Source of the DNA: Bacteroidia bacterium
Lineage (GTDB): Bacteria; Bacteroidota; Bacteroidia; 2-12-FULL-35-15
Reading direction: 5' to 3'
DNA length: 64,000 nt
Assembly (NCBI GenBank): GCA_038258655.1
Contig: JBBSPS010000001.1
Coordinates: forward strand, 7,089-71,088
A program made the position numbers and the translations under genes. Shown here piece after piece: positions 20,176 through 60,387 of this stretch. The notes under the pieces were generated by a model that saw only the letters and a list, made by a program, of their open reading frames with translations, was not told where the DNA came from and ran no database searches. Position 1 is the stretch's first letter. Each line of letters begins with the position of its first letter.

Positions 20176-20775
20176 GTAGTACTTTTATTTAAACTGTTGC
20201 AAGTTAGCCAAAAGCAGGAAAAATAAAAACAAAATATAAACCCAAAATATCCATAAAGTTCGTAGTTATTATGTTCAACTACTCTTTTAGTCGCATGAAA
20301 ACAGATATAGAAATTTTAGAAGCCAAGAAAGCAAGGTTCTTCTTAATAGAAAGGATAGCCTTGGCAACATGGCTTGTTACTTCCTTTCTCTTAAGAGCCT
20401 ATTACTGCCCTTGCGCTTATCGGTTATTTTTTATTATTGAAGATGAATAGATTGGCGCGCATTATAGAGTTGCATTTCTTTAACGCCATCATTTTGGCCA
20501 TACGGGTTTGTTAAAGTATCCGTAAACTAAAACATGAACTAAAAGAAGAGGGTTTTTATCTGAAAGGATGATTAGAAGGTTGGGTTGTTATATTTCGACA
20601 GTCGCAATCGTTCCTTTCGCTTTATTTATTAGCGTTTACTTGATTTTTTTTGATGTCCTTTGTTTGAACAAATACGGCTGATTTCAATGTATGGCAGCCA
20701 ATAAACGGCTTATCCATATTTATCGCTTTGCTTATTAAAGGAGAAGCTAGTGGAAAGAATAAAGAAATTACAGAG

Positions 20776-20812
20776 TAAAAAAAGTCCCGCAATAAACTGC
20801 GGGAGTTTTTCT
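20776..20812. terminator. Bidirectional Rho-independent terminator
   Basis: AAAAAAAG, TCCCGCA, loop ataaac, TGCGGGA, then GTTTTTC. Flanked by A-run and T-run, so it can function on both strands. Terminates the minus-strand gene ending at 20812. Confidence 0.6.
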
Positions 20813-27096: not shown

Positions 27097-28542
27097 TCAA
27101 TGCATTCCTATGCGTTGCAAAAAACCTTTTTTATTATATTCTTTTTTATCAACGCCTTTCGCTTCAATTAAATAATAGTAAGTACCATCCATCACATTTT
27201 TCCCATCCCAAGGACTGTTTACATCGCTGGATTCAAATATTTTTTTTCCCCAACGGTCAAATATTTGAATGTTATAGCTTACAAGATTTTTTGTGTTTAC
27301 TAAAAATAGGGGATGAGTTCCACCGGGAGTAAAAACATTTGGAATAAATATCGCAGATGTATCACAAGGGGGAATCATTTTTAAAGTATAGGTGAATAAT
27401 TGTTGCCCCGGAACCGGACAAGATCCATCACCCACGGTAACCTTAAATATATAAGTAGCATTCACGCTCCCGGCTGGTGCTGTCCAGCTCATGGTTGCCA
27501 CCAAAGGATTTTCACCCTTAGTAATAACTGTTGAACCAGGCAATACAGAAGCTATATCCGATAATAATGTAAGTGTATCACCCGCATCAACATCAGTATA
27601 AGTTGCATTAAAAGTAAATGTAGAACCTTCGCATGTTTCAACAGAATAGGAACTTGTTTTATCAGCACCGCTTACAATTGAAATAATACCACCCGAAGCA
27701 TCAGGAATATTATTTGAACAACTTTGAACAACGAATTGAATATCGCGCATCACACTTCCAATGAGTTTCCCATTCTTGTCGTATTCCTGGATCAACACCA
27801 CCACTACAAAACTTCCAATAGTAGTTGGAGTAAAAGTTAATTGCCCTGCATTGTGATCAATTACAATTCCCGGAATAGCCGTTGCAGCCGAATAACCGGC
27901 TGTATATGCAAGAGTTGTCGGCCCAACAGCTCTTGCATCTATAAGTGAATAATATAATGAGTCTCCATCAATTTCTGTTACTTCAAAATTATAGTTTACG
28001 AGTTGATTCACACAAACGTACGGAATAGGTTGTGCAGTAAATGAAGGAGAATTATTACAAAGTGCGGTAACACTATGAAGAGTCGCCTCAACATACGTTC
28101 CATTATTTCCGGGGGTTTGTAAGTTTAAAATAGCGGCATTTCTGCAACAGCTGCCCCAATACATTGTCCATGTATCGCAAGGTGTCGCAAGTGTAACTAC
28201 TCCCGAGTAATGAAACACCTTCATGCCCGGTAATGAGCCACCATTGCAAATACTATTATTAATTTTAGAAGGACATAATTGGGAAATTTCTGTTCCGGAG
28301 GCATTGATAACATTTACTATTGTTGTCGCTATATTACCGCAGGTGCTTGAAAAACGAACTGTTTGTTGTGAATTAAGAACCACTCCCGCAACACAATCAA
28401 CAAATACATTCAAATTGACCTGATATTGATCATTGCCCAAGCAAACATAACTTAGATCAGCTCCGGCAATATGATTAGCCTCGCTGTTGTTTGGAAGCAA
28501 CAAATAAAATATAAGTAAAGTGATGGAAATTATTTTTTTCAT
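27097..28542 (-). CDS. T9SS type B sorting (gliding-motility-associated C-terminal) domain protein
   Basis: Signal peptide. The C-terminal block FTPGG...IQIFDRWGKKIFES...WDGKN..GTYYYLIEA...KGFL matches the type B CTD pattern. Confidence 0.75.
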   Translation of the reverse strand: MKKIISITLLIFYLLLPNNSEANHIAGADLSYVCLGNDQYQVNLNVFVDCVAGVVLNSQQTVRFSSTCGNIATTIVNVINASGTEISQLCPSKINNSICNGGSLPGMKVFHYSGVVTLATPCDTWTMYWGSCCRNAAILNLQTPGNNGTYVEATLHSVTALCNNSPSFTAQPIPYVCVNQLVNYNFEVTEIDGDSLYYSLIDARAVGPTTLAYTAGYSAATAIPGIVIDHNAGQLTFTPTTIGSFVVVVLIQEYDKNGKLIGSVMRDIQFVVQSCSNNIPDASGGIISIVSGADKTSSYSVETCEGSTFTFNATYTDVDAGDTLTLLSDIASVLPGSTVITKGENPLVATMSWTAPAGSVNATYIFKVTVGDGSCPVPGQQLFTYTLKMIPPCDTSAIFIPNVFTPGGTHPLFLVNTKNLVSYNIQIFDRWGKKIFESSDVNSPWDGKNVMDGTYYYLIEAKGVDKKEYNKKGFLQRIGMH

Positions 28543-28552
28543 ACACCTTTTT

Positions 28553-28568
28553 GTTTGCGAAGATAAAA
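28553..28568 (-). promoter_or_regulatory. Conserved box TTTTATCTTCGCAAAC (gene-sense), 10-26 nt upstream of the start codon
   Basis: 15 of 16 nt identical to 42046-42061, which lies upstream of the DUF2723 gene. Confidence 0.3.
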
Positions 28569-28569
28569 C

Positions 28570-28606
28570 TATTTAAGGTAAAAAAAACAGGAAGTGTTTG
28601 TTGAAA
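28570..28606 (-). terminator. Strong Rho-independent terminator after the sigma/anti-sigma operon
   Basis: Perfect 12 bp stem CAGGAAGTGTTT / AAACACTTCCTG with a gttg loop, followed on the minus strand by TTTTTTTT. Confidence 0.65.
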
Positions 28607-28777
28607 CACTTCCTGCTAATAAGAAACACAACCCAGGCATCGGTTACAATACCCGTAATGTTGCAGTGGTGGTAGGGCTAACAACAGGATTGAATATTGT
28701 TGAGTTTCAATTCAGTGTATGACTTCCAAATCAAAACCACTACCGACACCTTTATGGGTTGCGTTAATTTCTGAATA

Positions 28778-29752
28778 TTATCTTGTTAAATTGAATGATC
28801 CTTTACGTTCAAATGATTTACCATCAAAACCTTCCGCATTAATTATATAGAAATAAGTTCCTTCTTTTGCTTCTTCTCCTATTAAATTTTTACCATTCCA
28901 TTTACCATCCCATTTGTCTTCCGATTGATACACAGCTTTGCCTTTTTTATTAAAAATAATAGCATTCATGTTCTTAACATTTTTAGCCTCACATAAATAC
29001 ATTGGCAACTGAGTTCGTGAAAAATCAGTAGGAATGGATGATACAGACGAATTACCTATTACCTCTATTTTAACACTATCCAAGGTAGTTTTTCCATCTG
29101 CACCGATAGAAGTAAGTTTTACCGTATAAACCCCAGGTTCATTATAAATATGTACAGGGCTTGTTTCGGTTTCAACTACTTTACTGTCACCGTAGGTCCA
29201 TTTATTAACTTTTCCTGTTCCATTATTCATAAGACTTACAATCAATGGTATTGTTCCAGCAACTGGTGTGGCAAAAATATTAGCTACTTGTTTTTCAGAA
29301 AACTTGTGAATCACGGATTCCATTTCCTTTTTATTTGTTTTCGCTATGATCGCTTCGTTTGTTTTATTTGATTCAGAAGAAACGACCGTTTTTTTATCAG
29401 CTAATTTTTGTTCGGCTTTTACAGCAACAGGGCCTGGCTCATTAATAGCCATTTGAGCCGGTTTCTCAATAGTAGTTGCCGGAACAACCAATTTATTATT
29501 CTCTGTTGATTGTGTTTTATCGCTGTTTGTCCAATGCATTACCATTATAGTACTGATAACAGTTGCAACCGATGAAACAATAGCGATAATAGTACTGGTG
29601 CCTATTTTATTCAAAATTACTTTAACCAAAATACCTAAACCAAAACCTTTTAAACCGATCTGAATATTTTTCCAAACATTGGAACTCACTTCCGGTTCAA
29701 AGTTTTCAAACTCCTTTTTAAACAGATCTTCTATCTCATCGTCTTTTTTCAT
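28778..29752 (-). CDS. Putative anti-sigma factor with a PKD domain and a T9SS type B-like C-terminal domain
   Basis: N-terminus DEIEDLFKKEFENFEPEVSSNVWKNIQ is typical of Bacteroidota anti-sigma partners. One TM segment. PKD-like block TYGDS...PGVYTVKLT. C-terminal IFNKKGKAVYQSEDKWDGKWNGKNL...GTYFYII...KGSFNLTR. The start overlaps the sigma stop (ATGA). Confidence 0.6.
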   Translation of the reverse strand: MKKDDEIEDLFKKEFENFEPEVSSNVWKNIQIGLKGFGLGILVKVILNKIGTSTIIAIVSSVATVISTIMVMHWTNSDKTQSTENNKLVVPATTIEKPAQMAINEPGPVAVKAEQKLADKKTVVSSESNKTNEAIIAKTNKKEMESVIHKFSEKQVANIFATPVAGTIPLIVSLMNNGTGKVNKWTYGDSKVVETETSPVHIYNEPGVYTVKLTSIGADGKTTLDSVKIEVIGNSSVSSIPTDFSRTQLPMYLCEAKNVKNMNAIIFNKKGKAVYQSEDKWDGKWNGKNLIGEEAKEGTYFYIINAEGFDGKSFERKGSFNLTR

Positions 29753-30285
29753 GTCTTTTTTCTATCTATTTGTATTATTTTTTGTAAATATGCTTTTGCC
29801 CTTGAATACTGCGATTTAGATGTCCCTTCCGAGATATCCAGCATACCCCCTATTTCCTTATGTGAATAACCTTCAATAGCATATAAGTTAAACACCGTTC
29901 TAAATCCCGATGGCAATGTTTGTATTATCTTCAATAAATCCTTTGCCGCAAAACTCTCATATATGTAACTGGCGGAAGGAAGCATAAATTCCACACTATC
30001 CAGCTCTACATTCTGCTTTAATCTCTTATTTTTTCTGATATTGGTAAGCGCTGTGTTTACCATTATCTTTCTGATCCAACCCTCTAACGAGCCTGTTCCT
30101 TTAAAAGCCGCAATATTTTCAAAAATACTGATAAACGCAATTTGAACTACATCCTCCGCCTCTTCTGTGCTATCGCAGTAGCGAAGGCACACCCCCATCA
30201 TTTTACGTGCAAATTTTTCGTATAAATGTTTTTGAGCAATGGCATTTTTTTCGATGCACCCTTTAACTATTTGCTCATCAGTCAT
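29749..30285 (-). CDS. ECF-type RNA polymerase sigma-70 factor
   Basis: Region 2 and region 4 features; 178 aa. Confidence 0.85.
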   Translation of the reverse strand: MTDEQIVKGCIEKNAIAQKHLYEKFARKMMGVCLRYCDSTEEAEDVVQIAFISIFENIAAFKGTGSLEGWIRKIMVNTALTNIRKNKRLKQNVELDSVEFMLPSASYIYESFAAKDLLKIIQTLPSGFRTVFNLYAIEGYSHKEIGGMLDISEGTSKSQYSRAKAYLQKIIQIDRKKT

Positions 30286-30373
30286 ATTTAATTTCTATTG
30301 TGTAGACGCAAAGTTGCATTATTTGGTTGCATCCTAAAAACTTTTTTTGATTTATTTAGCTACTTTTGTAGTA

Positions 30374-32785
30374 ATGAAGAAAAATTTTAAGAATAAACAG
30401 CAAGGAAAGAAAAAAAGTTTTTTGTTTGAAGAGATCATAAAGGTCTTATCTAGAACTCCTGCTAAGACATTGAACTATAAACAGATTGCAGCTGAGCTGA
30501 ATATTACCGATCATTCACAACGGCTATTGATCAATTCCATTTTGGAAGAGTTAAAGAATAATGGCACTGTTTCCGAACCGGAACGCGGCAAATTCAAGAT
30601 AAAATCCATTGAAAAGATCATTACAGGAAGGGTAGATATGACCGCAAGCGGTACCGCTTACATTGTTTCGGAAGAAACAGAGGACGACGTGGTGATCAAC
30701 CAGAAGAAAACCCTGAATGCCATGCATGGCGACACGGTAAAAGTAAGATTATTTCCAAAAAGCAAAGGCAAACAGGAAGGTGAAATCATTGAAGTGGTGC
30801 AACGAGCCAAGACCGAGTTTGTTGGTACCATTCAGATATCACCACGTTTCGCATTTTTAGTCCCTAGCAATATTAAGATCCATACAGATATATATATTCC
30901 ACTCGAAAAATTAAACGGTGCTAAAGACGGGCAAAAAGCCATTGCCAGAATTACAGAATGGCCTAAAAATGGCGTAAATCCTATCGGAGAGATCATTGAT
31001 GTATTAGGTAATGTAGGTGAAAATAATACCGAAATGCATGCCATACTTGCTGAATATGGCTTACCATACGAATTTCCGAAAGATGTAGAACGTGCAGCCG
31101 ATTTGATTCCTGTTAAAATTACAGCCGATGAGATCGCTAAAAGACGTGATTTTCGTGAAATTACCACCTTTACCATTGACCCTGTTGATGCGAAAGACTT
31201 TGATGATGCATTATCCATCCAAAAATTACAGAATGGCAACTGGGAAATAGGCGTTCATATTGCTGATGTGAGCCATTATGTAAAACCTGATTCAATGATC
31301 GATAAAGAAGCTGTTTCCCGTGCGACTTCTGTTTATTTAGTAGATAGAGTTGTACCAATGCTTCCCGAAGTATTATCAAACAATGTATGTTCGCTTCGGC
31401 CACATGAAGAAAAATTATGTTTCTCTTCTGTATTTGAAATGAATGATGATGCAGAAGTATTAACTGAATGGTTCGGAAGAACAATTATTAATTCCGACAG
31501 GCGATTTACATACGAAGAAGCTCAACGGGTTATTGAAACCGAAGAAGGTGATTTCAGCGAAGAAATTTTAACGCTTGATCGTTTAGCAAAAACATTACGT
31601 GCAAATCGTTTTAAAACAGGCAGTATCGCTTTCGAAAAGATGGAAGTAAAATTCCATTTGGATGAAGTAGGAAATCCAACAGGCGTATTTTTTAAAGTCG
31701 CAAAAGATTCCAATCAATTGATCGAAGATTTTATGTTGTTGGCGAATAGAAAAGTTGCGGAATTTGTTGGGAAGAAGAAAAAGGACGAAGGACGATCAAA
31801 AACTGAGAGTAGAACTGAATCACAGCGGCCATTCGTATATCGTATCCATGATAAACCAAACCCTGATAAACTAGCCAATTTCGCAGAGTTTGTAGGTAAG
31901 TTCGGTTACAAATTAAATGTAAAAAATATAAATACTGTTGCTGATTCAATGAATAATTTATTGAAAGAAGTGAATCAGAAAAAAGAATCGGGAATGATCG
32001 AGATGCTTGCTATCCGTACAATGGCGAAGGCTGTATACACTACAAAAAATATCGGGCATTACGGTTTAGGATTTGATTATTACACGCACTTCACTTCTCC
32101 TATCCGCCGTTACCCGGATGTAATGGTGCATAGATTATTACAACATTATTTAGATGGGGGTAAAAACCCGGATATTGATAAACTGGAAGAGCAATGCAAA
32201 CATTCTTCCGACATGGAAAAACTGGCAGCAGATGCCGAGCGTGCGTCCATCAAATACAAACAGGTACAATTCTTAACAGATAAAATTGGTGAAGAATTTG
32301 ACGGAATTATTTCCGGCGTAACCGAGTGGGGAATTTTTGTAGAGATTATTGAAAATCATTGTGAAGGAATGGTACGCTTGCGCGAATTGCGTGACGACAA
32401 TTATTATTTTGATGAAGATAATTATTGTTTGCGCGGCAGAAAATTCGGTAAAATTCTTACTCTTGGCGATAAGGTACGTATTGAAATAAAACGCGCCGAC
32501 TTAATTAAAAAACAATTGGATTTTGCTTTGGTAGAAGTGTTGGAAGAAGAGAAAAACACTTCAGCATCATCTAAAAAATTTGAACGACCTTCAAACAATA
32601 ATAAACAAGAACGCAAACCCTTCAATAAACAAAAAGACAAATTCTTCAACAAACAAAAACAGGGAAATAAACCTCCCGATAAATCTTTTGATGATTCATT
32701 TACTCCACCCCCGAAAAAAGATGTCCCTAAAAAACCACCAACAGCAGGCAAAAATTTTGATGAAGAATGGGGATTTGAGGTGTAA
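30374..32785 (+). CDS. rnr: Ribonuclease R
   Basis: RNB domain (HIADVSHYV), a C-terminal S1 domain, and a Lys-rich tail. The start is probably MKKNFKNK at 30374 rather than the track start 30347. Confidence 0.9.
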   Translation: MKKNFKNKQQGKKKSFLFEEIIKVLSRTPAKTLNYKQIAAELNITDHSQRLLINSILEELKNNGTVSEPERGKFKIKSIEKIITGRVDMTASGTAYIVSEETEDDVVINQKKTLNAMHGDTVKVRLFPKSKGKQEGEIIEVVQRAKTEFVGTIQISPRFAFLVPSNIKIHTDIYIPLEKLNGAKDGQKAIARITEWPKNGVNPIGEIIDVLGNVGENNTEMHAILAEYGLPYEFPKDVERAADLIPVKITADEIAKRRDFREITTFTIDPVDAKDFDDALSIQKLQNGNWEIGVHIADVSHYVKPDSMIDKEAVSRATSVYLVDRVVPMLPEVLSNNVCSLRPHEEKLCFSSVFEMNDDAEVLTEWFGRTIINSDRRFTYEEAQRVIETEEGDFSEEILTLDRLAKTLRANRFKTGSIAFEKMEVKFHLDEVGNPTGVFFKVAKDSNQLIEDFMLLANRKVAEFVGKKKKDEGRSKTESRTESQRPFVYRIHDKPNPDKLANFAEFVGKFGYKLNVKNINTVADSMNNLLKEVNQKKESGMIEMLAIRTMAKAVYTTKNIGHYGLGFDYYTHFTSPIRRYPDVMVHRLLQHYLDGGKNPDIDKLEEQCKHSSDMEKLAADAERASIKYKQVQFLTDKIGEEFDGIISGVTEWGIFVEIIENHCEGMVRLRELRDDNYYFDEDNYCLRGRKFGKILTLGDKVRIEIKRADLIKKQLDFALVEVLEEEKNTSASSKKFERPSNNNKQERKPFNKQKDKFFNKQKQGNKPPDKSFDDSFTPPPKKDVPKKPPTAGKNFDEEWGFEV

Positions 32786-35789: not shown

Positions 35790-35895
35790 AATTATAAGAG
35801 TGGTTTTGATTTGATACTGTGACCATGAAATTAAAGAATAGTTTAATCGGGAAATAAGAATCATTAAAATTTATTCGAAAAATATATTATTGGCT

Positions 35896-35980
35896 TACCC
35901 ACTTTCTCGATAACCTCGAAATGCCTACACGCCATACCTGATAATCATTTCGAGTAGTTTCGCCATCGAGAAAGTGGGTA
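35896..35980. other. Compound hairpin of about 85 nt: a 16 bp perfect outer stem plus a 9 bp inner stem
   Basis: Outer stem TACCCACTTTCTCGAT / ATCGAGAAAGTGGGTA; inner stem CTCGAAATG / CATTTCGAG. Lies between the LTXXQ gene start and the csp promoter. Confidence 0.55.
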
Positions 35981-36054
35981 GTGATAATAATAATTTAAAA
36001 TAAAATTCAAACAGTTTCTAAATTTATGTTTGCCTTTCCGAAAACCAAACTCTA

Positions 36055-36084
36055 TTTGTTTTAGTATATATTTTTATATCTTTG
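36055..36084 (+). promoter_or_regulatory. Candidate Bacteroidota sigma-A promoter for csp (-33 TTTG, -7 TAtcTTTG)
   Basis: TTTG at 36055-36058. TATCTTTG at 36077-36084, 18 nt downstream. Roughly 30 nt before the ATG. Confidence 0.35.
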
Positions 36085-36114
36085 TATAATATTAATTTTA
36101 ATTTATAATTTATA

Positions 36115-36306
36115 ATGAAAACAGGCACAGTAAAATTTTTTAATGTTTCTAAAGGATTTGGATTTATCACAGTAGATGGTAGTAACCAAGAACTTTTCGT
36201 TCACGTAACGGGCTTAATTGACCAAGTTCGTGATGGCGATAAAGTAACTTTTGAAGAAGCAGAAGGTAAAAAAGGCTTAAATGCAGTAGATGTAAGAAAA
36301 GCATAA
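36115..36306 (+). CDS. Cold-shock protein (CspA family)
   Basis: GTVKFFNVSKGFGFI and the RNP motifs; 63 aa. Confidence 0.92.
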   Translation: MKTGTVKFFNVSKGFGFITVDGSNQELFVHVTGLIDQVRDGDKVTFEEAEGKKGLNAVDVRKA

Positions 36307-36325
36307 TTGTAAAACACCTTTAATG

Positions 36326-36365
36326 AAAATCCCGTCCCGCAATAATGCAGGACGGGATTTTTTAT
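36326..36365 (+). terminator. Rho-independent terminator after csp
   Basis: AAATCCCGTCC, a 12 nt loop, GGACGGGATTT, then TTTT. Confidence 0.7.
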
Positions 36366-36405
36366 GGATTTTACACAGCTTATAAAGCTCTGCATACTAT
36401 CCGAA

Positions 36406-45663: not shown

Positions 45664-45688
45664 ACGAGTGGCTGAAACTACCAACCCG

Positions 45689-46184
45689 ATGAAAAAAAAT
45701 TTCTCCTAATCATCTTATTCCTTTCCACAATTGTAAATGCACAATCAACAAAATGCATTATAAAAACTCCCCTTGGAGATATTACCATTGAACTCTATTC
45801 CAAACAATCGCCAATAACAGTAAACCATTTTTTATATTATGTGTATAATCACCTGTATGATAGCAGTAGTTTCTTTCGGGTATGTACGCCTGCAAATGAA
45901 GCAGAGCGAAAAATAAACAAACAAAGTTATTACACACAAATGGAACCTTGTCAATGGCAAGAGATGCAAATCCTAATTCAGCAACCAGTGAATTTTTTAT
46001 TTGCATCAATGATCAACCGGAATTAAATTTTGGAGGAAAAAGAAATCCGGATGGGCAAGGTTTTGCTGCTTTCGGAAAGGTGACCAAAGGAATGGATGTG
46101 GTAAAAAAAATTCAGAAGGAAAAAGATAAGGAACAGTATCTTATTGATCGTGTTGTAATTTATTCAATAAGAAGAATAAAATAA
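45689..46184 (+). pseudogene. Cyclophilin-type peptidyl-prolyl isomerase disrupted by two single-nucleotide frameshifts
   Basis: ATG at 45689 is followed by an 8-A run and a stop after 6 codons. A 9-A run would restore the signal peptide MKKKFLLIILFLSTIVNAQ and the cyclophilin N-domain (frame of the 45841 ORF). A second -1 shift near 45920 moves into the C-terminal frame (GTLSMARDANPNSATSEFFICINDQPEL...GKVTKGMDVV). Confidence 0.6.
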
Positions 46185-46283
46185 AATTTCTGCAACAAAA
46201 GATTGGGTTAAAGCCTAAATATGTGAAGGATTAAACTAATGTATTTATCCCAAATACTCTTCATATTGGCAGATGCTCCATTT

Positions 46284-48754
46284 TTAATCGATTATTATAA
46301 TTTTACCCGTACTGATGAGAGAATTGTCTTTTGATAAAATCCGGTAAATATATATTCCAGCATTAAGTTCATCCCTTATAAATTCAAAGGAATTTGAAGC
46401 AGTTTGAAATTTACGAACTTCTCTTCCATAAATATCAAAGACCATAAAATTATATCCATTTGTAGTTTTATTTTGTTCGGATATTATAAAAGTAGTAGAT
46501 TCATTAAAAGGATTGGGATATACATTAACTTTTATATTATTATTGTAAGTAATTTGAGTAATGCCAACAGTAATGGATATTGTATTGATTGCTTTTTTAG
46601 TTGAAACCGGAGCGTTAAAATCAAACCATATATCAACTTTATTTTTAATAACATCGCCGGGGTGATTAGCAGCATTTTGTTTGATCTTAAATTTTACAAA
46701 AGCATGGCTTTCAACTTCGTTTGTTGTGCTATCCGGTAACATAATTTTTGGAAATGTAAACTCCAGTATTCTTGAATCATAAACTCTGTATGTATATTTA
46801 TGACTGCTTGCGCCAGCTTCAATTGAGCTTATGTTGAGCTTACTTGTTATAGTATCTCTCACAACAATATTAATTGCTGTATCTGTTCCTGTATTTTGAA
46901 AATGAATAGTATAGGAAAGAATAGAATCAGTTAAATTTATTGTTCCTACCGAACCAATACCTTTTGGACTTACTTCTTTAAAATTAGGATCATACGCTGC
47001 TTTTATGATACGGTTGGTGGTATCAATATTATTGGCGGAAACAATATCCATTGCTAAAGGATATATAAGAGCTTTATGATGTAACGTACTACCAACTAAA
47101 CCCGGATTGGCAGGAACATTATAATCAACAGAAATATTTCTTTTCTCACCCATCAAAAGGTTACTAAAATTCCAATCCAATGTATCACCATTTTGGTTTA
47201 CTTGTAACGGCGATGCGGATACGAATGACAAAAGTGGATCATATTGTAATTTAATATTGCCACTCATGGTTTTTGTTCCGACATTTTCATATTGAATATC
47301 TATTTTGTGTTTAGACCCTACCTTAGCAATACCACAAGCAACACTTATTTTTAAATCCTGAACATTGGGCACAAATTGCATTCCAAAATTATTGGCTGAT
47401 GAATTTTGCTGTAGTGTATCAAAATGAACAGAATAGGTTGAAGGAGAATTAGGACATATCTGATTACTATAAGTAATTGGAACAAGGCTTACAGAAAAAG
47501 TTCCTGTATCAGTTGTTACAGAATAAAAACCATTTGTATCTGTTGTTGCGTAACTATTTCCGGGTGAAATATAAACCATTTTATTTGCAAGCTTTGGTTC
47601 TCCTGCGTCTTTAATACAATTTCCATTCAGGTCATTATAAACATACCCTTCTATTTTATCACTATAGGAATTACCTGCAGCATCCGTTTTAATTAAATAA
47701 AAAAAAGGTGATGTGGAAGGAACTTGTGAATTACCAAATATTATAAACCCACCGTCTTTTGTTGTTTCTATGAACTCTCCCCTAATTGACCCATTTCCAA
47801 TATTTGGCGCTCGGTATTCTTTTTCCCATTGTATATTTCCTAATACCCCCATTTTTACCACCCATACATAATTTTCGGATTTTGTTCCAACAAAAGCATA
47901 TCCACCATCTGGTGTTTTAGTAATTGAAAAAGCGCAATAAAGGGGCTTCCTATTAGTTGTAATAAAAGAGCGCGTCCATAATGTATCTCCATTAGAATTT
48001 GTTTTATTTACAGATATTATGGAATCACCACCAACGGCTATATATCCCGCATCTGAAGTTTGCTGAACAGAATAGAATGCATTAGCTCCTATGTAGGATT
48101 TGCTCCAACTAATATTTCCATTCTTATCAAATTTAGTTAATAGGGGTGAATTTACCACCCCCCCTGAAGCTACAAAACCTGAATCAGCAGTTTGTATGAC
48201 CCAACGAAAATTTGGATTCCCAATACCCAATGTCTTCCATTTTAAATTTCCGAGGCTATCTCTCTTAGCGACATAATTACTTGACGTCATTACCAATCCT
48301 TTATCAAAAGTTTCCTGAACACAAAGTATTTGATATCCTGAAATTCCAAGTGACTTTGTCCATAAAGTATCTCCAAACTTATTTAACCTAAGTAATATAT
48401 CTTTGCCAGAAATATCAAAATTATTGTGTGCACCTACAACATACCCTCCGTCTTTAATTGTTTTATACATGAAGTTTTATCAAAATATTTATATATTCTT
48501 TTCCATTGTACATTACCATTGCAATCAACTTTAACAATTAATCCATAATTCTTATAGAACGTTACAGTATCAATTGTTACAAGTCCAAGAATATAACCAA
48601 GATCCATGGTTTGATCAACAGTAGAATGATGAGGCCATGAGAGGGTTAATCTAGCGGGGATTTCTTTTTCCCAGCGCTGAGCATGAACTATAAAAACACA
48701 AGATACCAAGGTAATTAATAATATAATTTTTTTTGGGGCATAGATAGGACTCAT
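46284..48754 (-). CDS. Large secreted repeat protein with a T9SS type A C-terminal sorting domain, split by a frameshift at about 48461-48464
   Basis: The 106 aa ORF carries the signal peptide and the first D.NGN..W repeat. The 728 aa ORF carries DGGY/DSGF repeats, Ig-like domains and a Por_Secre_tail (VYPNPFNE...GIYIYRI). A 5th A in the 4-A run restores ...SCIKTIKDGGYVV. Confidence 0.65.
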
Positions 48755-49473: not shown

Positions 49474-49496
49474 TCACTTATAACTTATAACTATAA
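49474..49496. repeat. Heptamer tandem repeat (TTATAGT TATAAGT TATAAGT in gene sense) overlapping the sigma-factor stop codon
   Basis: Same unit family as 3775-3810. Located at the sigma-to-rsmG junction. Confidence 0.45.
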
Positions 49497-50108
49497 TTTT
49501 TCGTCGGAATTTTTTAAAATATTGGCTAAGAATTCACGGGCACGAAATAGTTGTGCTTTAACTGTACCAAGCGGTAATTCTAATTTTTCGGAAATTTCTT
49601 CATACGATAATTCTTCGAAATAACGCATCTCCACCAACACGCGATAACGTGGCTTTAATTTGTCCACTATGTCATGCATGAGTTTCACCTTTTGCTTTTT
49701 TACAAAACTCTCTTCCGGGTTAGGGCCGGTAGATTTAATATCCATACTCATCTCGCCCCCTTCATCATTTTCAAAAGTACGGTCGAGGGAAAAAGTGATC
49801 ATCTTTTTTCTACGTATAAAATCAATACAATTGTTGGATGCTATTTTAAATAGCCAAGTGCTGAACGCAAAATTGGGAGTGTATTGCCCCAGACGTTTAA
49901 ATGCTTTACCAAATGCTTCAATGGTCAAATCATCCGCATCATCTTTGTTATTTATCATTTTCAGCAACATGAAATAAACCGAATCATGGTAACGTCCCAT
50001 CAATTCAGCATACGCTTTTTGATCACCTTTATCAAGCGCCAAACGGATTAAATTATAATCATATACCGCTTTTACCGATAGGTTTGAGTCAGAGTTTAAT
50101 TCATCCAT
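49491..50108 (-). CDS. RNA polymerase sigma-70 family factor (ECF / sigma-24-like)
   Basis: Region 2 (DLTIEAFGKAF) and region 4 (LSYEEISEKLELPLGTVKAQLFRAR). Confidence 0.85.
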   Translation of the reverse strand: MDELNSDSNLSVKAVYDYNLIRLALDKGDQKAYAELMGRYHDSVYFMLLKMINNKDDADDLTIEAFGKAFKRLGQYTPNFAFSTWLFKIASNNCIDFIRRKKMITFSLDRTFENDEGGEMSMDIKSTGPNPEESFVKKQKVKLMHDIVDKLKPRYRVLVEMRYFEELSYEEISEKLELPLGTVKAQLFRAREFLANILKNSDEKL

Positions 50109-55742: not shown

Positions 55743-57092
55743 TTATTGAAGAGAAATTTTTCCTTGTTGTATTTCCTTCTTTTCATTTATTATTTTATAC
55801 AAATATATTCCTTTATCCTTTCGACTCAAGTCAATCACGCAGGAATTGTTTTTTGAGGTTGTTTGATAAATCATTCTTCCCATACTATCATACACTTCAA
55901 TTTGATTTTCTTTTTCTAAATTTTGGAAAATGAATTGTCCATTGCTTGGATTGGGAAAAATTAAAACAGGGTTTACAAAATGTCCTTCATTTATCCCAAC
56001 AGGAAGTGTTGTAAAGTTAAAAGGCCCTATCCAGGTAGTGTTGACAGTATCGCAGTTGGCTCTTATATAATAGGAATAATTTAAATTAGCAGTTAAGCCA
56101 GTTACTTTATAGTAATTACTATCTGAAGAATAAAAAGTACCGCTGCCTAAATTAAAACCCTGCAAGCCCAACTGAATAGTATAATAGATGGCAATACCTT
56201 TCCAATGCAATAGAGCGGAACCGGAAGTAATATCCGTAACAGTGGCATTGCTTGGAGATAAACATAATGTTGCAAATACATCCAGGTCATAATTATTGCT
56301 ACCGCATCCATTAGTAATAGATAAGGTGACTGGATAAGCATACTTACTTGTATCCAGCAGATGAGTTACCTTAGGACTATTAGAGGTATTATCAAATTGA
56401 CCATCTCCAAACCACCAATAATAATAGCTTGCACTTGTATCAAGAGCGGTAAAATCAAAAACAAACAAATTTGTATCTTTAAGAAAAGCGGTAAACGTTG
56501 CATTGGGAAAGCCTAGCGAGTCCGGCGCAACTTTAACTAGGGAAGTTAAGGTATCAGCTTTCAATCCTTTTTTGGCGATCAGTGTTATAGGATAAGTTCC
56601 TGCTTTATCAAATTTATAGGATGGAAAGTCTAATGTTGAAATAGAGCTGTCGGGCAAGATCCAAACAAATTGATCGCTGCAGGTAGAAAAATTGTAAAGC
56701 TGATTATAACAATACCTAAATAAAAAATCCGCATGAGGAACTGTATCAACATACAGGTTCCTAGTTATAGTAGTATAATGCCCGTTATACGAAGTCATGG
56801 TAACACTGTAAGGTCCGATTTTTGTAAAAAAATAAGAAATATTTTTTTCATAGGAGGAGTATATCGTATCGCCTTTATCGTTTGCAATGCCCCAATAAAT
56901 GGCATAACCGCCACTTGTTTTGTCAATGAAATGAGTTGAATCTCCCGCACAAAGCCCTTTAACAATAAAATTGCCTACCGGCGGAAGATGCCTCGTTCCG
57001 CTTACAGAAGAAGTTCCTGATTGAGCGATTAATCCCAGGCTTAAAAAACAAGCAAAAATTAAATTGAGATATGTTATTTTTTTAATCTTCAT
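55743..57092 (-). CDS. Secreted protein with PKD/FN3-like domains and a T9SS type A sorting domain
   Basis: Signal peptide. C-terminus IFPNPSNGQF...GIYLYKI. Confidence 0.7.
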   Translation of the reverse strand: MKIKKITYLNLIFACFLSLGLIAQSGTSSVSGTRHLPPVGNFIVKGLCAGDSTHFIDKTSGGYAIYWGIANDKGDTIYSSYEKNISYFFTKIGPYSVTMTSYNGHYTTITRNLYVDTVPHADFLFRYCYNQLYNFSTCSDQFVWILPDSSISTLDFPSYKFDKAGTYPITLIAKKGLKADTLTSLVKVAPDSLGFPNATFTAFLKDTNLFVFDFTALDTSASYYYWWFGDGQFDNTSNSPKVTHLLDTSKYAYPVTLSITNGCGSNNYDLDVFATLCLSPSNATVTDITSGSALLHWKGIAIYYTIQLGLQGFNLGSGTFYSSDSNYYKVTGLTANLNYSYYIRANCDTVNTTWIGPFNFTTLPVGINEGHFVNPVLIFPNPSNGQFIFQNLEKENQIEVYDSMGRMIYQTTSKNNSCVIDLSRKDKGIYLYKIINEKKEIQQGKISLQ

Positions 57093-57115: not shown

Positions 57116-59137
57116 TTATTGTATAACTAAACGTTTATTGAAAATTTCTTTCCCATCACTAATACGCACCATATATATTCCAGCAGGGAATGTTTTCAAA
57201 TCTAAAACTTGATTTATTTTTCCATTATTATTTTGAACAATCACTTGCAGAATTTCTTCACCAAGTAAATTAAAAATGGATACATTTATTTTTGAGCTTT
57301 GTACACTTGCGCTTATTTTAAATTCTCCATTATTCGGATTAGGAGAAATGGAAAAATCAGAAAAATAATTTTCTTCTTTAATACCGACGGTAAGCAATGT
57401 TGTAAAAGTATAAGGACCTGAATAATTTGTTGTGGTTATATCGCCGCAGTTTGTTCTTACATAAAATGAGTATGCGGTATTCCCCTGCAAACCTGTTAAA
57501 GCATAATAAGGGGTGATAGTGGTATGTGGGATTCCGGTCCCTAATAAAAAACCTTTCAGCCCCCATTGAATATCAAAATGTGTACCTATACCATTCCAAC
57601 TTAATAAGGCGGAGTTAGACGTAATACTAGTAATAGTTCCCGAAGTTGATGAAGCGCATGTTCGATTGGAAAATGTAAAAGGTCCTAACCAATAACTACT
57701 GCCATTTCCGTTACAGGTATCCTGCACATAAAACTCATAAAAAAAATTTGGCGTTAAACCAATTAATGTTTTGGGGTTTACAGTTGTATTTGTGTTACTA
57801 TTACCTGTACCTAAAGTAAAACCTTGCAGCCCCCATTGAGTGTTCCATTTGCCCGAACCGCCGCCAGTCCAGCCTATTGTAAAAGAGCTGTCAGTCTCTT
57901 TGACCATATTAATAAGTGAAGGAGGGTTGCAGTTAATTCCTTGTTTGGAGCCAAGTATAAATTCTCCTTTGGGTCTAGTACTTTTTTTCAATAATAAATG
58001 ATTGACAGTATCATGCTTAGCAAAATATTCACTCCATAACAGATCACTGTTTTGATTGCGTGTAAATAATTTAAGATTCATTTTATCAGCAAGAGCAGAG
58101 GAATTAGCCGCATAATCAAAAGCAAATTTATAAGCTGTATTATCGGAAACATCTGTTAAAAAAACTCCATAATAATTAAAGTTAGATGGGTATTCATTTA
58201 AACTTAAAGAGGAATTGGGCAAGCTATTTACTTTATAGATGTGAATTCCTGAAGCACCGGAAACACTATCCACAATTAAATTGCCATAAGTAGGGTCTGT
58301 TAAGCTAATTACTTCACCACTCCAATCACTTAAGGCAGGGTAAAGTTGTATACTCTCATTGCCAATAGGGGCGCCGGATACCTTCCAGTTTGATGCTACG
58401 GTATTCTTCCAGATGCCATTATTTATTCCTTTAAGATCTCTTAGCTTGTTTCCCGAAGTGCTATCACAATTATAATATGAATATAAACCCGTTTCATTGC
58501 CTAGTAATTTTTTGCACATATCAATCCTGATATCTTGTTCCGTCCTTTCATAATTCCAAATACGCACATCATCCATTTTACCATCATAACGGATGTGCGT
58601 ACCATTATCTGTATAATCCCCAGTTCCATCCTGTCCTAATTTATAAGTGTAGGTTGTAGCTAACGAACCCGTTGCCGCGGAAATATTTATACTATCTTTT
58701 ATAACACCATTAATATAAATTTTTAAATACCCGTTACGTTTAAAAGTAGCAGACAGATGAAACCAGCCACGACCAATAGCGTTAATGGGTACAATTAAAT
58801 TTTTAACAGTTCCATTTGGCGCTTTAAAATTAACTCTTAATTTATTTCCATTATCATGAATATCCATGTTAATGCCTGTGTTACTTCCGGAGCTCCAGTC
58901 CTTGTTACTGAAGAACGCCGGATCATTCATACAATTATTTACATTCAGCCACATTTCAACGGTAAAATCACTGGTATTAATTGCTGAAAGATTTCCGAGA
59001 TCGACGTGATTATTGTTTGACATGTTAGGTGTAAAATCCAAACAATACCCCGAACCAATGGTTGGATTTACCTGTGCATTTAAAATGTCGGTAATAACAA
59101 TGCAAATAAATAATACGTATTTTAATTTATGTTTCAT
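57116..59137 (-). CDS. Secreted LamG/concanavalin-like plus FN3 domain protein with a T9SS type A sorting domain
   Basis: LamG-like block (DFTVEMWLN...GYLKIYINGV). C-terminus SPNPNNGEF...GIYMVRI. Confidence 0.7.
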   Translation of the reverse strand: MKHKLKYVLFICIVITDILNAQVNPTIGSGYCLDFTPNMSNNNHVDLGNLSAINTSDFTVEMWLNVNNCMNDPAFFSNKDWSSGSNTGINMDIHDNGNKLRVNFKAPNGTVKNLIVPINAIGRGWFHLSATFKRNGYLKIYINGVIKDSINISAATGSLATTYTYKLGQDGTGDYTDNGTHIRYDGKMDDVRIWNYERTEQDIRIDMCKKLLGNETGLYSYYNCDSTSGNKLRDLKGINNGIWKNTVASNWKVSGAPIGNESIQLYPALSDWSGEVISLTDPTYGNLIVDSVSGASGIHIYKVNSLPNSSLSLNEYPSNFNYYGVFLTDVSDNTAYKFAFDYAANSSALADKMNLKLFTRNQNSDLLWSEYFAKHDTVNHLLLKKSTRPKGEFILGSKQGINCNPPSLINMVKETDSSFTIGWTGGGSGKWNTQWGLQGFTLGTGNSNTNTTVNPKTLIGLTPNFFYEFYVQDTCNGNGSSYWLGPFTFSNRTCASSTSGTITSITSNSALLSWNGIGTHFDIQWGLKGFLLGTGIPHTTITPYYALTGLQGNTAYSFYVRTNCGDITTTNYSGPYTFTTLLTVGIKEENYFSDFSISPNPNNGEFKISASVQSSKINVSIFNLLGEEILQVIVQNNNGKINQVLDLKTFPAGIYMVRISDGKEIFNKRLVIQ

Positions 59138-59157: not shown

Positions 59158-60387
59158 TTACTCAAGAATTATTTTCTTTGTTACTTTCTTTGATCCTATA
59201 TTAAGTTCAATAAAATAAACTCCTTTAGGATTATTACTTAAATCAATATTTAATTTATTTTTTGATGTGGTACAACTCAGCGTATTTTCACAAACTATTT
59301 TACCAATAAGATCAAGCACCTTGTAACTAGTATTTTCGTTGCATTCATTTCCAAACCATAAGGACACCACATTTGTTGTAGGATTTGGAAACACTTTAAC
59401 ATTTATGTTATTTGAGAGGGATTTAATTCCAAGCGCATTTTCATGTATAGAATCCAACCAAGATTTTCCATCAAGTCCCCACGCAGGATTTATTGTAGGG
59501 TTGCAGGAAGAACCCATGATTAAATGATCAAGGGCAGTAACTGCAATATCATATTGTCCGGGACTTTTTGCGCCAATAGATGCATTATAGTTGCCAATAG
59601 CAACACTACCAGGATCAGTTACAGCGGTAAGTTGTTTGGACAGAACAAAATTGCCGGACCCTATCCACCAAATGGATCTTTCCTGAACAGAATTGCCGCC
59701 ATGTGTTGTGCCAATTCCGCCATAGTCCGTGGTAATTAAAATGATCCAATCCTCATTAGCATAATCTGTCCTGTTATGTAAAGCAGTTACAACGCTGCCA
59801 ATTTCTCCGTCTATTGTTTCAAGAGCAGAGATGTAGGAAGAATTACCGGGACTAAATCCGCTGGCATGACCAACAATATCCGCTTCATCAAAACAAATAA
59901 ACATCGCATCCAGATTTGGATTTGCCAACTGTGTTTGCGCAGCAGATACACTTTGTGAGCCAATACCATATTGTACTTTTATTTTATTGCTCCATCCGTC
60001 ATTATACAAATTATCAGACATAGGAGCCCATTGAACAATTTGTACACTGTATAAATTAGGTAGGCAGGATTTTGCGCGCGTAGGAAAATAAGGATAGGTA
60101 GCATATTTACTTCCCGCATAAGTATTGCTTGTAACACCGTGTTTATCGTATTCAACACCACACATGGTTGTTGACCATGCCGGCGCTGATAGAGTTATTC
60201 CACGATGCCAGGATTCATACGTATAAAATCCGTTTGCAATAAGACCGTCAATTACTGGCGTGTTAGCTTGCTGTAAAGCATCAGATCTTATTCCGGCAAT
60301 GCCGATGATCAGTACTTTTCTTGGTTGTGAAGCTTGTATATTAAGAGGAAAAATAACAACCGACAAAATGAGTAAAAAAAATCTCAT
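59158..60387 (-). CDS. Alkaline-phosphatase-superfamily enzyme (type I phosphodiesterase/nucleotide pyrophosphatase, NPP-like) with a T9SS type A sorting domain
   Basis: Metal-site motifs IGIAGIRSD, SAPAWSTTMCG and DEADIVGHASG. C-terminus VFPNPTTN...GVYFIEL. Confidence 0.7.
   Translation of the reverse strand: MRFFLLILSVVIFPLNIQASQPRKVLIIGIAGIRSDALQQANTPVIDGLIANGFYTYESWHRGITLSAPAWSTTMCGVEYDKHGVTSNTYAGSKYATYPYFPTRAKSCLPNLYSVQIVQWAPMSDNLYNDGWSNKIKVQYGIGSQSVSAAQTQLANPNLDAMFICFDEADIVGHASGFSPGNSSYISALETIDGEIGSVVTALHNRTDYANEDWIILITTDYGGIGTTHGGNSVQERSIWWIGSGNFVLSKQLTAVTDPGSVAIGNYNASIGAKSPGQYDIAVTALDHLIMGSSCNPTINPAWGLDGKSWLDSIHENALGIKSLSNNINVKVFPNPTTNVVSLWFGNECNENTSYKVLDLIGKIVCENTLSCTTSKNKLNIDLSNNPKGVYFIELNIGSKKVTKKIILE

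Follow-up and report, generated by a model that had tools for sequence, protein, structure and literature searches.

A candidate ECF sigma/anti-sigma pair whose membrane partner carries a type B signal for type IX secretion

We analysed a 64,000-nucleotide stretch of DNA from a Bacteroidia bacterium (GCA_038258655.1, contig JBBSPS010000001.1; hereafter the window), in which a two-gene locus encodes an extracytoplasmic function (ECF) sigma factor and a putative anti-sigma factor that ends in a C-terminal domain (CTD) of the type B kind found on cargo exported by type IX secretion systems (T9SS). Both genes lie on the minus strand. The upstream gene (29749-30285) encodes the sigma factor of 178 aa, and the downstream gene (28778-29752) encodes a membrane protein of 324 aa; the stop codon of the former and the start codon of the latter share the sequence ATGA at 29749-29752, as the first-pass annotation, made from the letters of this DNA, had described. 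Its assignment of the upstream gene to the ECF (group IV) sigma-70 factors was likewise borne out. The protein contains only the sigma-2 and sigma-4 domains in the Pfam scan (Sigma70_r2, PF04542, 57.4 bits; Sigma70_r4_2, PF08281, 48.4 bits), reaches 85.9 bits on the NCBIfam model TIGR02937 (cutoff 42.9), and has a length within the norm of the group (approximately 170-200 aa). It falls under the cutoff of all named NCBIfam subfamilies, with 84.1 bits against 126.4 for TIGR02985 (Bacteroides-type) and 71.7 against 130 for NF058625 (the GFO_1088/PG0214 family). The nearest solved chains in a PDB search are SigE, 6in7 (chain named sigma-H factor), RpoE, and SigW.

An ECF-type promoter, GCAACC-N16-CGTCT, is located at 30304-30330 on the minus strand, approximately 45 nt before the sigma ATG. 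It is the single match of its type in the 64-kb window, both by pattern search and by position weight matrix (29.6 of 30.1). Comparison with relatives revealed that TGCAACC-N14-TGC(A/G)TCT occurs at the same distance before the sigma gene in 53/53 distinct upstream regions, with both boxes kept in several loci whose spacer sequence differs. In six distant loci, described below, a relaxed form is found 5' of the sigma gene, in which GCAACY-N16 is followed by CATCT, CATCA, AGTCT, or AGTTT. The bipartite motif has the look of an ECF autoregulatory promoter, with an AAC-type -35 and a CGT-type -10 box, and the sigma factor would presumably use the promoter at 30304-30330 itself. In two of the close loci a second match was observed (TGCAACC-N14-AACGCATCT; L018 at ~15296 and L028 at ~15304, both on the plus strand), with the boxes kept and the spacer differing between the two genomes. 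It precedes, by approximately 540 nt, a gene whose product is a secreted protein of ~390 aa and which may be a member of the regulon.

The 324-aa protein consists of five regions: a conserved N-terminal module, a membrane region, a long linker, a PKD domain, and the CTD. Residues 1-36 (29645-29752, minus strand) form an acidic module that is the proposed cytoplasmic sigma-binding segment. In an alignment of 18 sequences, the N-terminus (IEDLFKxSFENFEAEVSPSVWKNIQ) and the membrane span are highly conserved; the more general consensus of the module is IEDLFKxxFENFExEVSxxVWKNIQ. A database search recovered 66 full-length relatives, which are 40-67% identical, are 318-342 aa long, and all contain the PKD domain and the Pfam domain CHU_C. 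Among these 66, residues 1-36 are the most conserved part of all, with a mean pairwise identity of 0.67, followed by the PKD domain (0.63), the membrane region (0.60), the CTD (0.54), and the linker (0.21). In some relatives the N-terminal motif (LFxxxFxxxExxVxPxxWxxI) is present in two to five tandem copies ahead of the membrane span, with examples among the distant proteins P0091, P0092, P0100, P0101, P0110, P0121, and P0153. Because the N-terminus is the most conserved part, is followed by a span of 23 residues, and occurs as tandem repeats, it appears to be a domain in its own right and not the n-region of a signal peptide.

The module is followed by a short amphipathic stretch (residues 37-51) and by a single hydrophobic span at residues 52-74 (TSTIIAIVSSVATVISTIMVMHW; 29531-29599, minus strand), which has a Kyte-Doolittle peak of 2.09 and is a helix in the AlphaFold2 (AF2) model. 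One hydrophobic peak is also found in 76/86 distant relatives, with a median start at residue 53. The layout differs from that of a cleavable Sec signal peptide, with ~50 conserved residues before the 23-residue span, and no small-residue cleavage site was read by eye after the span (VMHW/TNS). Since PKD and CHU_C are extracytoplasmic domains, the protein would be oriented with its N-terminus in the cytoplasm and its C-terminus outside. The Lys/Glu/Thr-rich linker, residues 75-156 (29285-29530, minus strand), is mostly disordered by the AF2 model: the predicted local distance difference test (pLDDT) is <50 at residues 36-137, and a short helix at 141-151 has higher confidence. While its sequence drifts, its length stays at 74-99 residues (median 83) in the 66 relatives, and a tether of this length would, when stretched out, measure approximately 25-30 nm and thus suffice to span a periplasm. 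The PKD domain occupies residues 157-235 (29048-29284, minus strand) and agrees with the PKD-like domain of the first-pass annotation; it scores 33.6 bits on PKD_4 (PF18911; cutoff 27) and 24.8 bits on Pfam PKD, also above cutoff. In the AF2 model, the pLDDT is 80-90 for this domain (159-234) and 76-90 overall for the PKD and the C-terminal beta domain (259-322) together. Foldseek against the PDB recognised the PKD domain alone in the 324-aa model, matching it to the PKD domains of ColG and ColH with a TM-score of ~0.7 (0.73 for the ColG target, with a root mean square deviation of 2.9).

The C-terminal region, residues 256-324 plus the stop codon (28778-28987, minus strand), was identified by Pfam as CHU_C (PF13585), the type B T9SS domain. 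The match reaches 40.3 bits against a cutoff of 27, although of the 86 profile positions it covers only 23-76. Weak matches to FlgD_ig were obtained for the domain as well. The type B assignment made in the first pass therefore held on CHU_C but not on TIGR04131, where the window protein obtains 19.7 bits against the curated cutoff of 35. This low score is explained by the loss of the SPNGDG motif in the small clade to which the protein belongs. In the 18-sequence alignment, most relatives open the CTD with FSPNGDGxxDxF, the hallmark type B start, where the window protein has the degenerate sequence FSRTQLPMYLCE. The SPNGDG block is lost only in P0001-P0005, the window clade made up of the window protein and its four nearest relatives, and in P0035; P0001-P0005 carry FSRTQLPMY in its place and keep the WDG, GTYFY, and GSFNLTR blocks, while the relatives retain SPNGDG, WDG, GxYFY, and GxIxLxR. 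Six sampled relatives score 33-44 bits on TIGR04131 over profile positions 3-85, and 5/6 pass the cutoff (36-44 bits). The domain stands at the extreme C-terminus, ending ...KGSFNLTR-stop, and 16/18 aligned relatives end at the same column. Profile scores and motif content indicate that the CTD is, at the level of the family, a true type B T9SS domain, of which the window copy is a degenerate member. The type B CTD has no solved structure by the account of PMC12618676. Such domains normally mark secreted cargo, as the first-pass annotation had remarked: T9SS cargo has Sec signal peptides, and type B domains are handled by PorP/SprF-like shuttles (PMC12618676, PMC9143113).

The coupling between the two ends of the protein was examined independently with a profile of residues 1-78 alone, for which 1.84 billion representative proteins were searched and hits with E up to 0.001 were accepted. 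A word-indexed protein search with the N-terminal 76 residues had returned nothing, and the exhaustive profile search was used instead; it recovered 409 protein clusters. We then took the 91 hits of 40-65 bits and at least 200 aa as a distant set and scanned them whole. CHU_C was found in 77/91 and TIGR04131 in 75/91 (best E-value 2.8e-16), while PKD was found in 41/91, so that the N-module is coupled far more tightly to CHU_C than to PKD. In 2/91, an outer-membrane beta-barrel domain replaces the T9SS domain at the end of the protein. Because the query contained no C-terminal sequence, the result shows that N-module and type B domain have remained associated across a broad evolutionary span, and the fusion between them is, as judged from these profiles, ancient and widespread. 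In public annotation, the relatives are named [quoted passage not shown] or "PKD repeat protein".

The pairing with a sigma factor is equally consistent. All loci examined, namely the 58 close loci (L001-L058), L084-L086, and six distant loci, have a sigma gene immediately upstream of the partner gene and in the same orientation. In L001-L058, which were drawn from genomes and assemblies, and in L084-L086, the upstream sigma is orthologous; in L001-L058 the gap between sigma gene and partner gene is -14 to +21 nt, excepting the disrupted gene in L056. The six distant loci, which include Flavobacteriales metagenome-assembled genomes labelled Crocinitomix and Putridiphycobacter, have unrelated neighbourhoods in which a sigma gene is followed by the N-module gene with an overlap or a short gap. 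A survey of relatives for this architecture had been proposed in the first pass, and its outcome of 66 full-length relatives, 409 N-module clusters, and a sigma gene at every locus suggests, so far at the level of sequence, that the architecture is conserved widely enough to be biologically meaningful.

Downstream of the 324-aa gene, conservation and folding identified a structured 3'-untranslated region (3'-UTR) element with an intrinsic terminator (28578-28777, minus strand). The structured part spans 28620-28777, and the terminator (28617-28578) comprises a 14-bp hairpin at 28617-28586 and a T8 run to ~28578. The DNA of the element is 73-80% identical between relatives, a coding-like level, compared with 50-64% for the gene's own linker, and has stops in all frames. 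It is homologous to one internal Ig-like repeat of a CHU_C adhesin of ~1250 aa, and in L002, L003, L026, and L034 this adhesin occupies the position of the element; the element is thus the relic of a lost adhesin gene. Every intergenic copy recovered comes directly behind the family gene, in 15 aligned genome loci and in 7/7 metagenome loci, where it lies 74-85 nt after the family-gene stop. This position is kept in loci with another or a convergent gene downstream. The window element has a minimum free energy of -66.3 kcal/mol (z = -5.65 versus shuffled sequences), and two relatives give z = -6.5 and -6.0. In a 23-pair consensus, the share of paired cells is 97.4%, whereas slid controls reach 36-46%, and compensatory changes occur at six pairs; the consensus was derived from the same alignment on which the pairing was scored. 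The matching stretch within intact adhesin genes also folds well and shows no extra nucleotide constraint, its third-codon identity of 0.42 being like that of the rest of the gene. Rfam returned nothing for the element at gathering thresholds, and otherwise only a chance-level RAGATH-23 hit (E = 0.59). A role as 5' leader or attenuator of the cargo gene was rejected, because a change of downstream gene does not part the element from the family gene, and an ordinary decaying pseudogene was rejected in view of the coding-like identity and the conserved pairing. The element has the appearance of a 3'-UTR RNA that selection preserved when the adhesin gene was lost, and it would exemplify a coding fragment turned into structured RNA. 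The window clade, in which SPNGDG is lost, is among the lineages whose large neighbouring adhesin gene shrank to a relic; comparison of P0001-P0005 with L002, L003, L012, L026, and others showed that some relic-bearing lineages keep SPNGDG.

Beyond the terminator lies a gene for a secreted protein of 481 aa (27097-28542, minus strand), given here as context only. A Sec signal peptide is readable at its start, and its CHU_C match reaches 52.4 bits over profile positions 2-85 of 86. The earlier description of this gene as bona fide type B cargo behind a terminator is consistent with the CHU_C score, the signal peptide, and the hairpin, but its TIGR04131 score of 28.7 bits is under the cutoff of 35. 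In 15 of the loci, an orthologue (phmmer 513-635 bits) is the next gene after the pair or is separated from it by one other gene. The first-pass annotation had further linked the sigma factor to this gene and singled out a TTCGCAA box in front of it; neither proposal was supported. TTCGCAA is present at 28555-28561 (minus strand), and was rejected as a promoter box with 8 occurrences in the window against 13.9 expected, which makes it rarer than chance. No sigma-type promoter stands before the 481-aa gene in the window, and the terminator separates the two genes. Because the motif occurs once in the window, before the sigma gene, and never before the downstream CHU_C genes in the 58 close loci scanned, control of the neighbouring cargo by the sigma factor is unsupported, and we rejected it as far as sequence tells. 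The sequence TTATCTTCG at 28553-28563 (minus strand), which overlaps TTCGCAA, is conserved in four orthologous loci (the window, L084, L086, and L058). It stands just past the terminator and approximately 10-20 nt ahead of the 481-aa start, and may be a -7-type promoter box of the cargo gene.

Four type A T9SS cargo genes (Por_Secre_tail, 35-59 bits) are located elsewhere in the window at 46284-48470, 55743-57092, 57116-59137, and 59158-60387, all on the minus strand, and their presence indicates that the organism uses the T9SS. Three of them are consecutive and have a gene for a TonB-dependent receptor (60536-63466) as their neighbour. On the other side of the pair, RNase R (30347-32785, plus strand) is divergent from the sigma gene; almost every close locus has it upstream in the opposite orientation, and it is absent beside the distant pairs, which makes it a conserved synteny partner of the close clade only. 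A second ECF-type sigma gene, of 205 aa (49491-50108, minus strand), has no obvious membrane-partner gene directly downstream. Three stretches of 540-640 nt (20176-20811, 45664-46283, and 35865-36405) have no open reading frame of at least 90 aa, and Rfam scans at gathering thresholds found nothing in them.

Taken as a whole, the locus is read here, tentatively and at slightly less than an even chance, as an autoregulated ECF sigma/anti-sigma operon whose sensor is a tethered type B T9SS signal. By the customary standards for ECF systems, the 324-aa protein is considered a putative anti-sigma factor because it is the translationally coupled downstream gene product, a single-span membrane protein, and the bearer of a conserved N-terminal segment. 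In the proposed mechanism, the anti-sigma factor would be a single-pass inner-membrane protein whose cytoplasmic 36-residue N-terminus holds the sigma factor, and whose periplasmic part comprises a flexible tether of ~80 residues, the PKD domain, and the type B signal. The tethered signal would act as the input, being recognised by outer-membrane parts of the T9SS, either the translocon SprA or a shuttle of the PorP/SprF-like kind. Whether the signal is engaged, pulled, or left unengaged would then alter the stability of the anti-sigma factor, probably through proteolysis of the tether, and this stability would set the amount of free sigma, so that expression would track the working state or load of the T9SS. 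The idea of a signalling module that senses or mimics T9SS/gliding substrates, raised in the first pass, accordingly retains the universal sigma pairing and the widespread fusion of N-module and type B CTD, but loses the link to the downstream cargo.

Several observations weigh against this tethered-signal operon. The N-terminal segment, which the first-pass annotation called a typical Bacteroidota anti-sigma segment, is a recurrent module by its 409 clusters but belongs to no recognised family: residues 1-80 match no curated Pfam or NCBIfam family at E up to 1, and a PDB sequence search with the module found no relative and hence no solved anti-sigma domain. Residues 1-36 contain no Cys or His, which precludes a zinc-binding HxxxCxxC motif, and the proposed cytoplasmic segment of ~36 residues is shorter than a class I anti-sigma domain; neither the class I four-helix domain nor the zinc-binding type was thus recognised. 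Lys and Arg counts are equal on both flanks of the span, which leaves the positive-inside count neutral. No target promoter beyond the sigma factor's own was found in the window or before the downstream CHU_C genes of the 58 close loci. An adjacent cognate PorP/SprF-like gene is common for a type B CTD, though not universal, and orphans exist; none stands beside the pair in the loci with Pfam calls, and neither T9SS machinery nor a PorP/SprF gene was present among the window open reading frames scanned. The carriers are all uncultured; neither the names of the clusters nor a search started with a Flavobacteriales relative yielded a cultured one. The window protein itself lacks SPNGDG and fails TIGR04131, and in the SprB CTD mutation of any of five conserved motifs abolishes secretion (PMC12618676). 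The 324-aa protein would lack one of the five (A-E, last 100 residues) if, as we infer, SPNGDG corresponds to one of these motifs, which the text of PMC12618676 does not spell out. Having lost its first motif, the signal of the window clade may bind and yet not undergo export; alternatively, it may have been retuned.

A bolder account, which we regard as unlikely, makes the anti-sigma factor a T9SS substrate retained by its inner-membrane anchor and pulled on by the running machine, which frees the sigma factor, with the recycled adhesin-relic RNA serving as a regulatory output in part of the clade. The machine would grip the C-terminal signal, pull the tether, and break or extract the anti-sigma factor, giving a FlgM-like secretion-coupled control of genes across both membranes; in that part of the clade, the small structured RNA would be the main product of the operon besides the two proteins. 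About equally unlikely in our estimation is a sigma/anti-sigma pair in which the CTD never meets the T9SS and serves as a periplasmic beta-sandwich for sensing or oligomerisation, with a ligand unrelated to secretion. The missing first motif and the subthreshold TIGR04131 score of the window protein suit such a sensor, as do the weak FlgD_ig matches, the lack of an adjacent PorP/SprF gene, and the frequency of PKD domains in generic extracytoplasmic binding proteins. Most relatives, however, have a full-profile TIGR04131 match above cutoff and keep the SPNGDG, WDG, GxYFY, and GxIxLxR blocks, the domain invariably closes the protein, the position required of a T9SS signal, and the N-module is tied to CHU_C far more than to PKD.

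Somewhat less probable than either is a standing bridge across the envelope, in which the CTD is permanently held by a PorP/SprF-like outer-membrane protein, the N-terminus retains the sigma factor, and the pair senses envelope damage or spacing instead of secretion. [quoted passage not shown] Against this stands the order of events in secretion, as type B cargo is thought to meet its shuttle at the cell surface, after the translocon (PMC9143113, PMC12618676), and a protein anchored in the inner membrane would need to thread the translocon. The lowest probability is given to the 324-aa protein being an ordinary small T9SS cargo, a PKD surface protein with an unusually long conserved signal or anchor that is co-transcribed with the sigma factor as its main target and is not its antagonist. 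Autotransporters provide examples of extended signal peptides in which the N-terminal extension is conserved, public annotation names the relatives after gliding motility-associated or PKD repeat proteins, and all known T9SS cargo is exported by Sec (PMC12618676). The hydrophobic span, preceded by ~50 residues, is at 23 residues longer than a signal-peptide core, though, and no small-residue cleavage site was read; conservation is highest in the first 36 residues, of which relatives have up to five copies, and the start of the gene overlaps or abuts the sigma stop in every locus, the usual mark of a stoichiometric partner.

To our knowledge, little is known of how the T9SS is regulated or monitored in Bacteroidota beyond Porphyromonas gingivalis, where one studied pathway, PorA-PorXY-SigP, has only recently shown a secretion signal doubling as a periplasmic messenger. 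If the tethered-signal operon is real, the family of 409 clusters would offer a direct and testable route from secretion state to transcription, as well as a ready-made "stalled substrate" for the recognition of type B signals by the translocon and PorP/SprF shuttles. The annotation of genomes would also be corrected, as such proteins are currently filed as gliding proteins or secreted cargo.

Comparison with the single-pass anti-sigma systems under regulated proteolysis, RpoE-RseA of Escherichia coli and SigW-RsiW of Bacillus subtilis, revealed the same group IV sigma domains, a downstream co-transcribed membrane protein with a single span, and a putatively autoregulated promoter of AAC/CGT type. 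The pair described here differs in its proposed cytoplasmic segment, which has only ~36 residues and matches no anti-sigma family or solved domain, and in its exterior, which consists of a tether, a PKD domain, and a T9SS signal instead of an RseB-binding region or another known sensor. With the type B cargo proteins SprB, Fjoh_3952, and PG1035 (TIGR04131/PF13585), the 324-aa protein shares the CTD family, its extreme C-terminal position, and an Ig-like (PKD) domain just upstream. In contrast to this cargo, it has a conserved, putatively cytoplasmic module and a membrane anchor in place of a cleavable Sec signal peptide; the family proteins are very small (~325 aa) next to typical adhesins, no adjacent PorP/SprF gene was found, and in the window copy the first motif is missing and the TIGR04131 cutoff is not reached.

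FlgM, the anti-sigma-28 factor, leaves through the type III apparatus of the flagellum when assembly of the hook-basal body has finished, and the logic proposed here would match it, with an anti-sigma factor bearing the export signal of the machine on which it reports. FlgM is soluble and leaves the cell whole, whereas the 324-aa protein is predicted to be anchored and could at most be pulled on or cleaved. The closest precedent is the PorA-PorY/PorX-SigP system of P. gingivalis, in which a T9SS CTD acts as a periplasmic signal controlling an ECF sigma factor, and PorA still signals when tethered to the inner membrane (PMC7712824, PMC12152298). PorA is a separate, Sec-exported type A cargo protein that acts through a two-component system; here, a type B CTD is fused to the putative anti-sigma factor itself, no PorX or PorY is adjacent, and the sigma factor is below the cutoff of every named NCBIfam subfamily. 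An anti-sigma factor with a T9SS CTD was not described in the literature searched. What appears to be new, from the comparisons assembled here, is the occurrence of a T9SS type B signal as the external domain of a putative ECF sigma/anti-sigma pair, which suggests, without proving, that the carriers report the state of the T9SS directly to gene expression.

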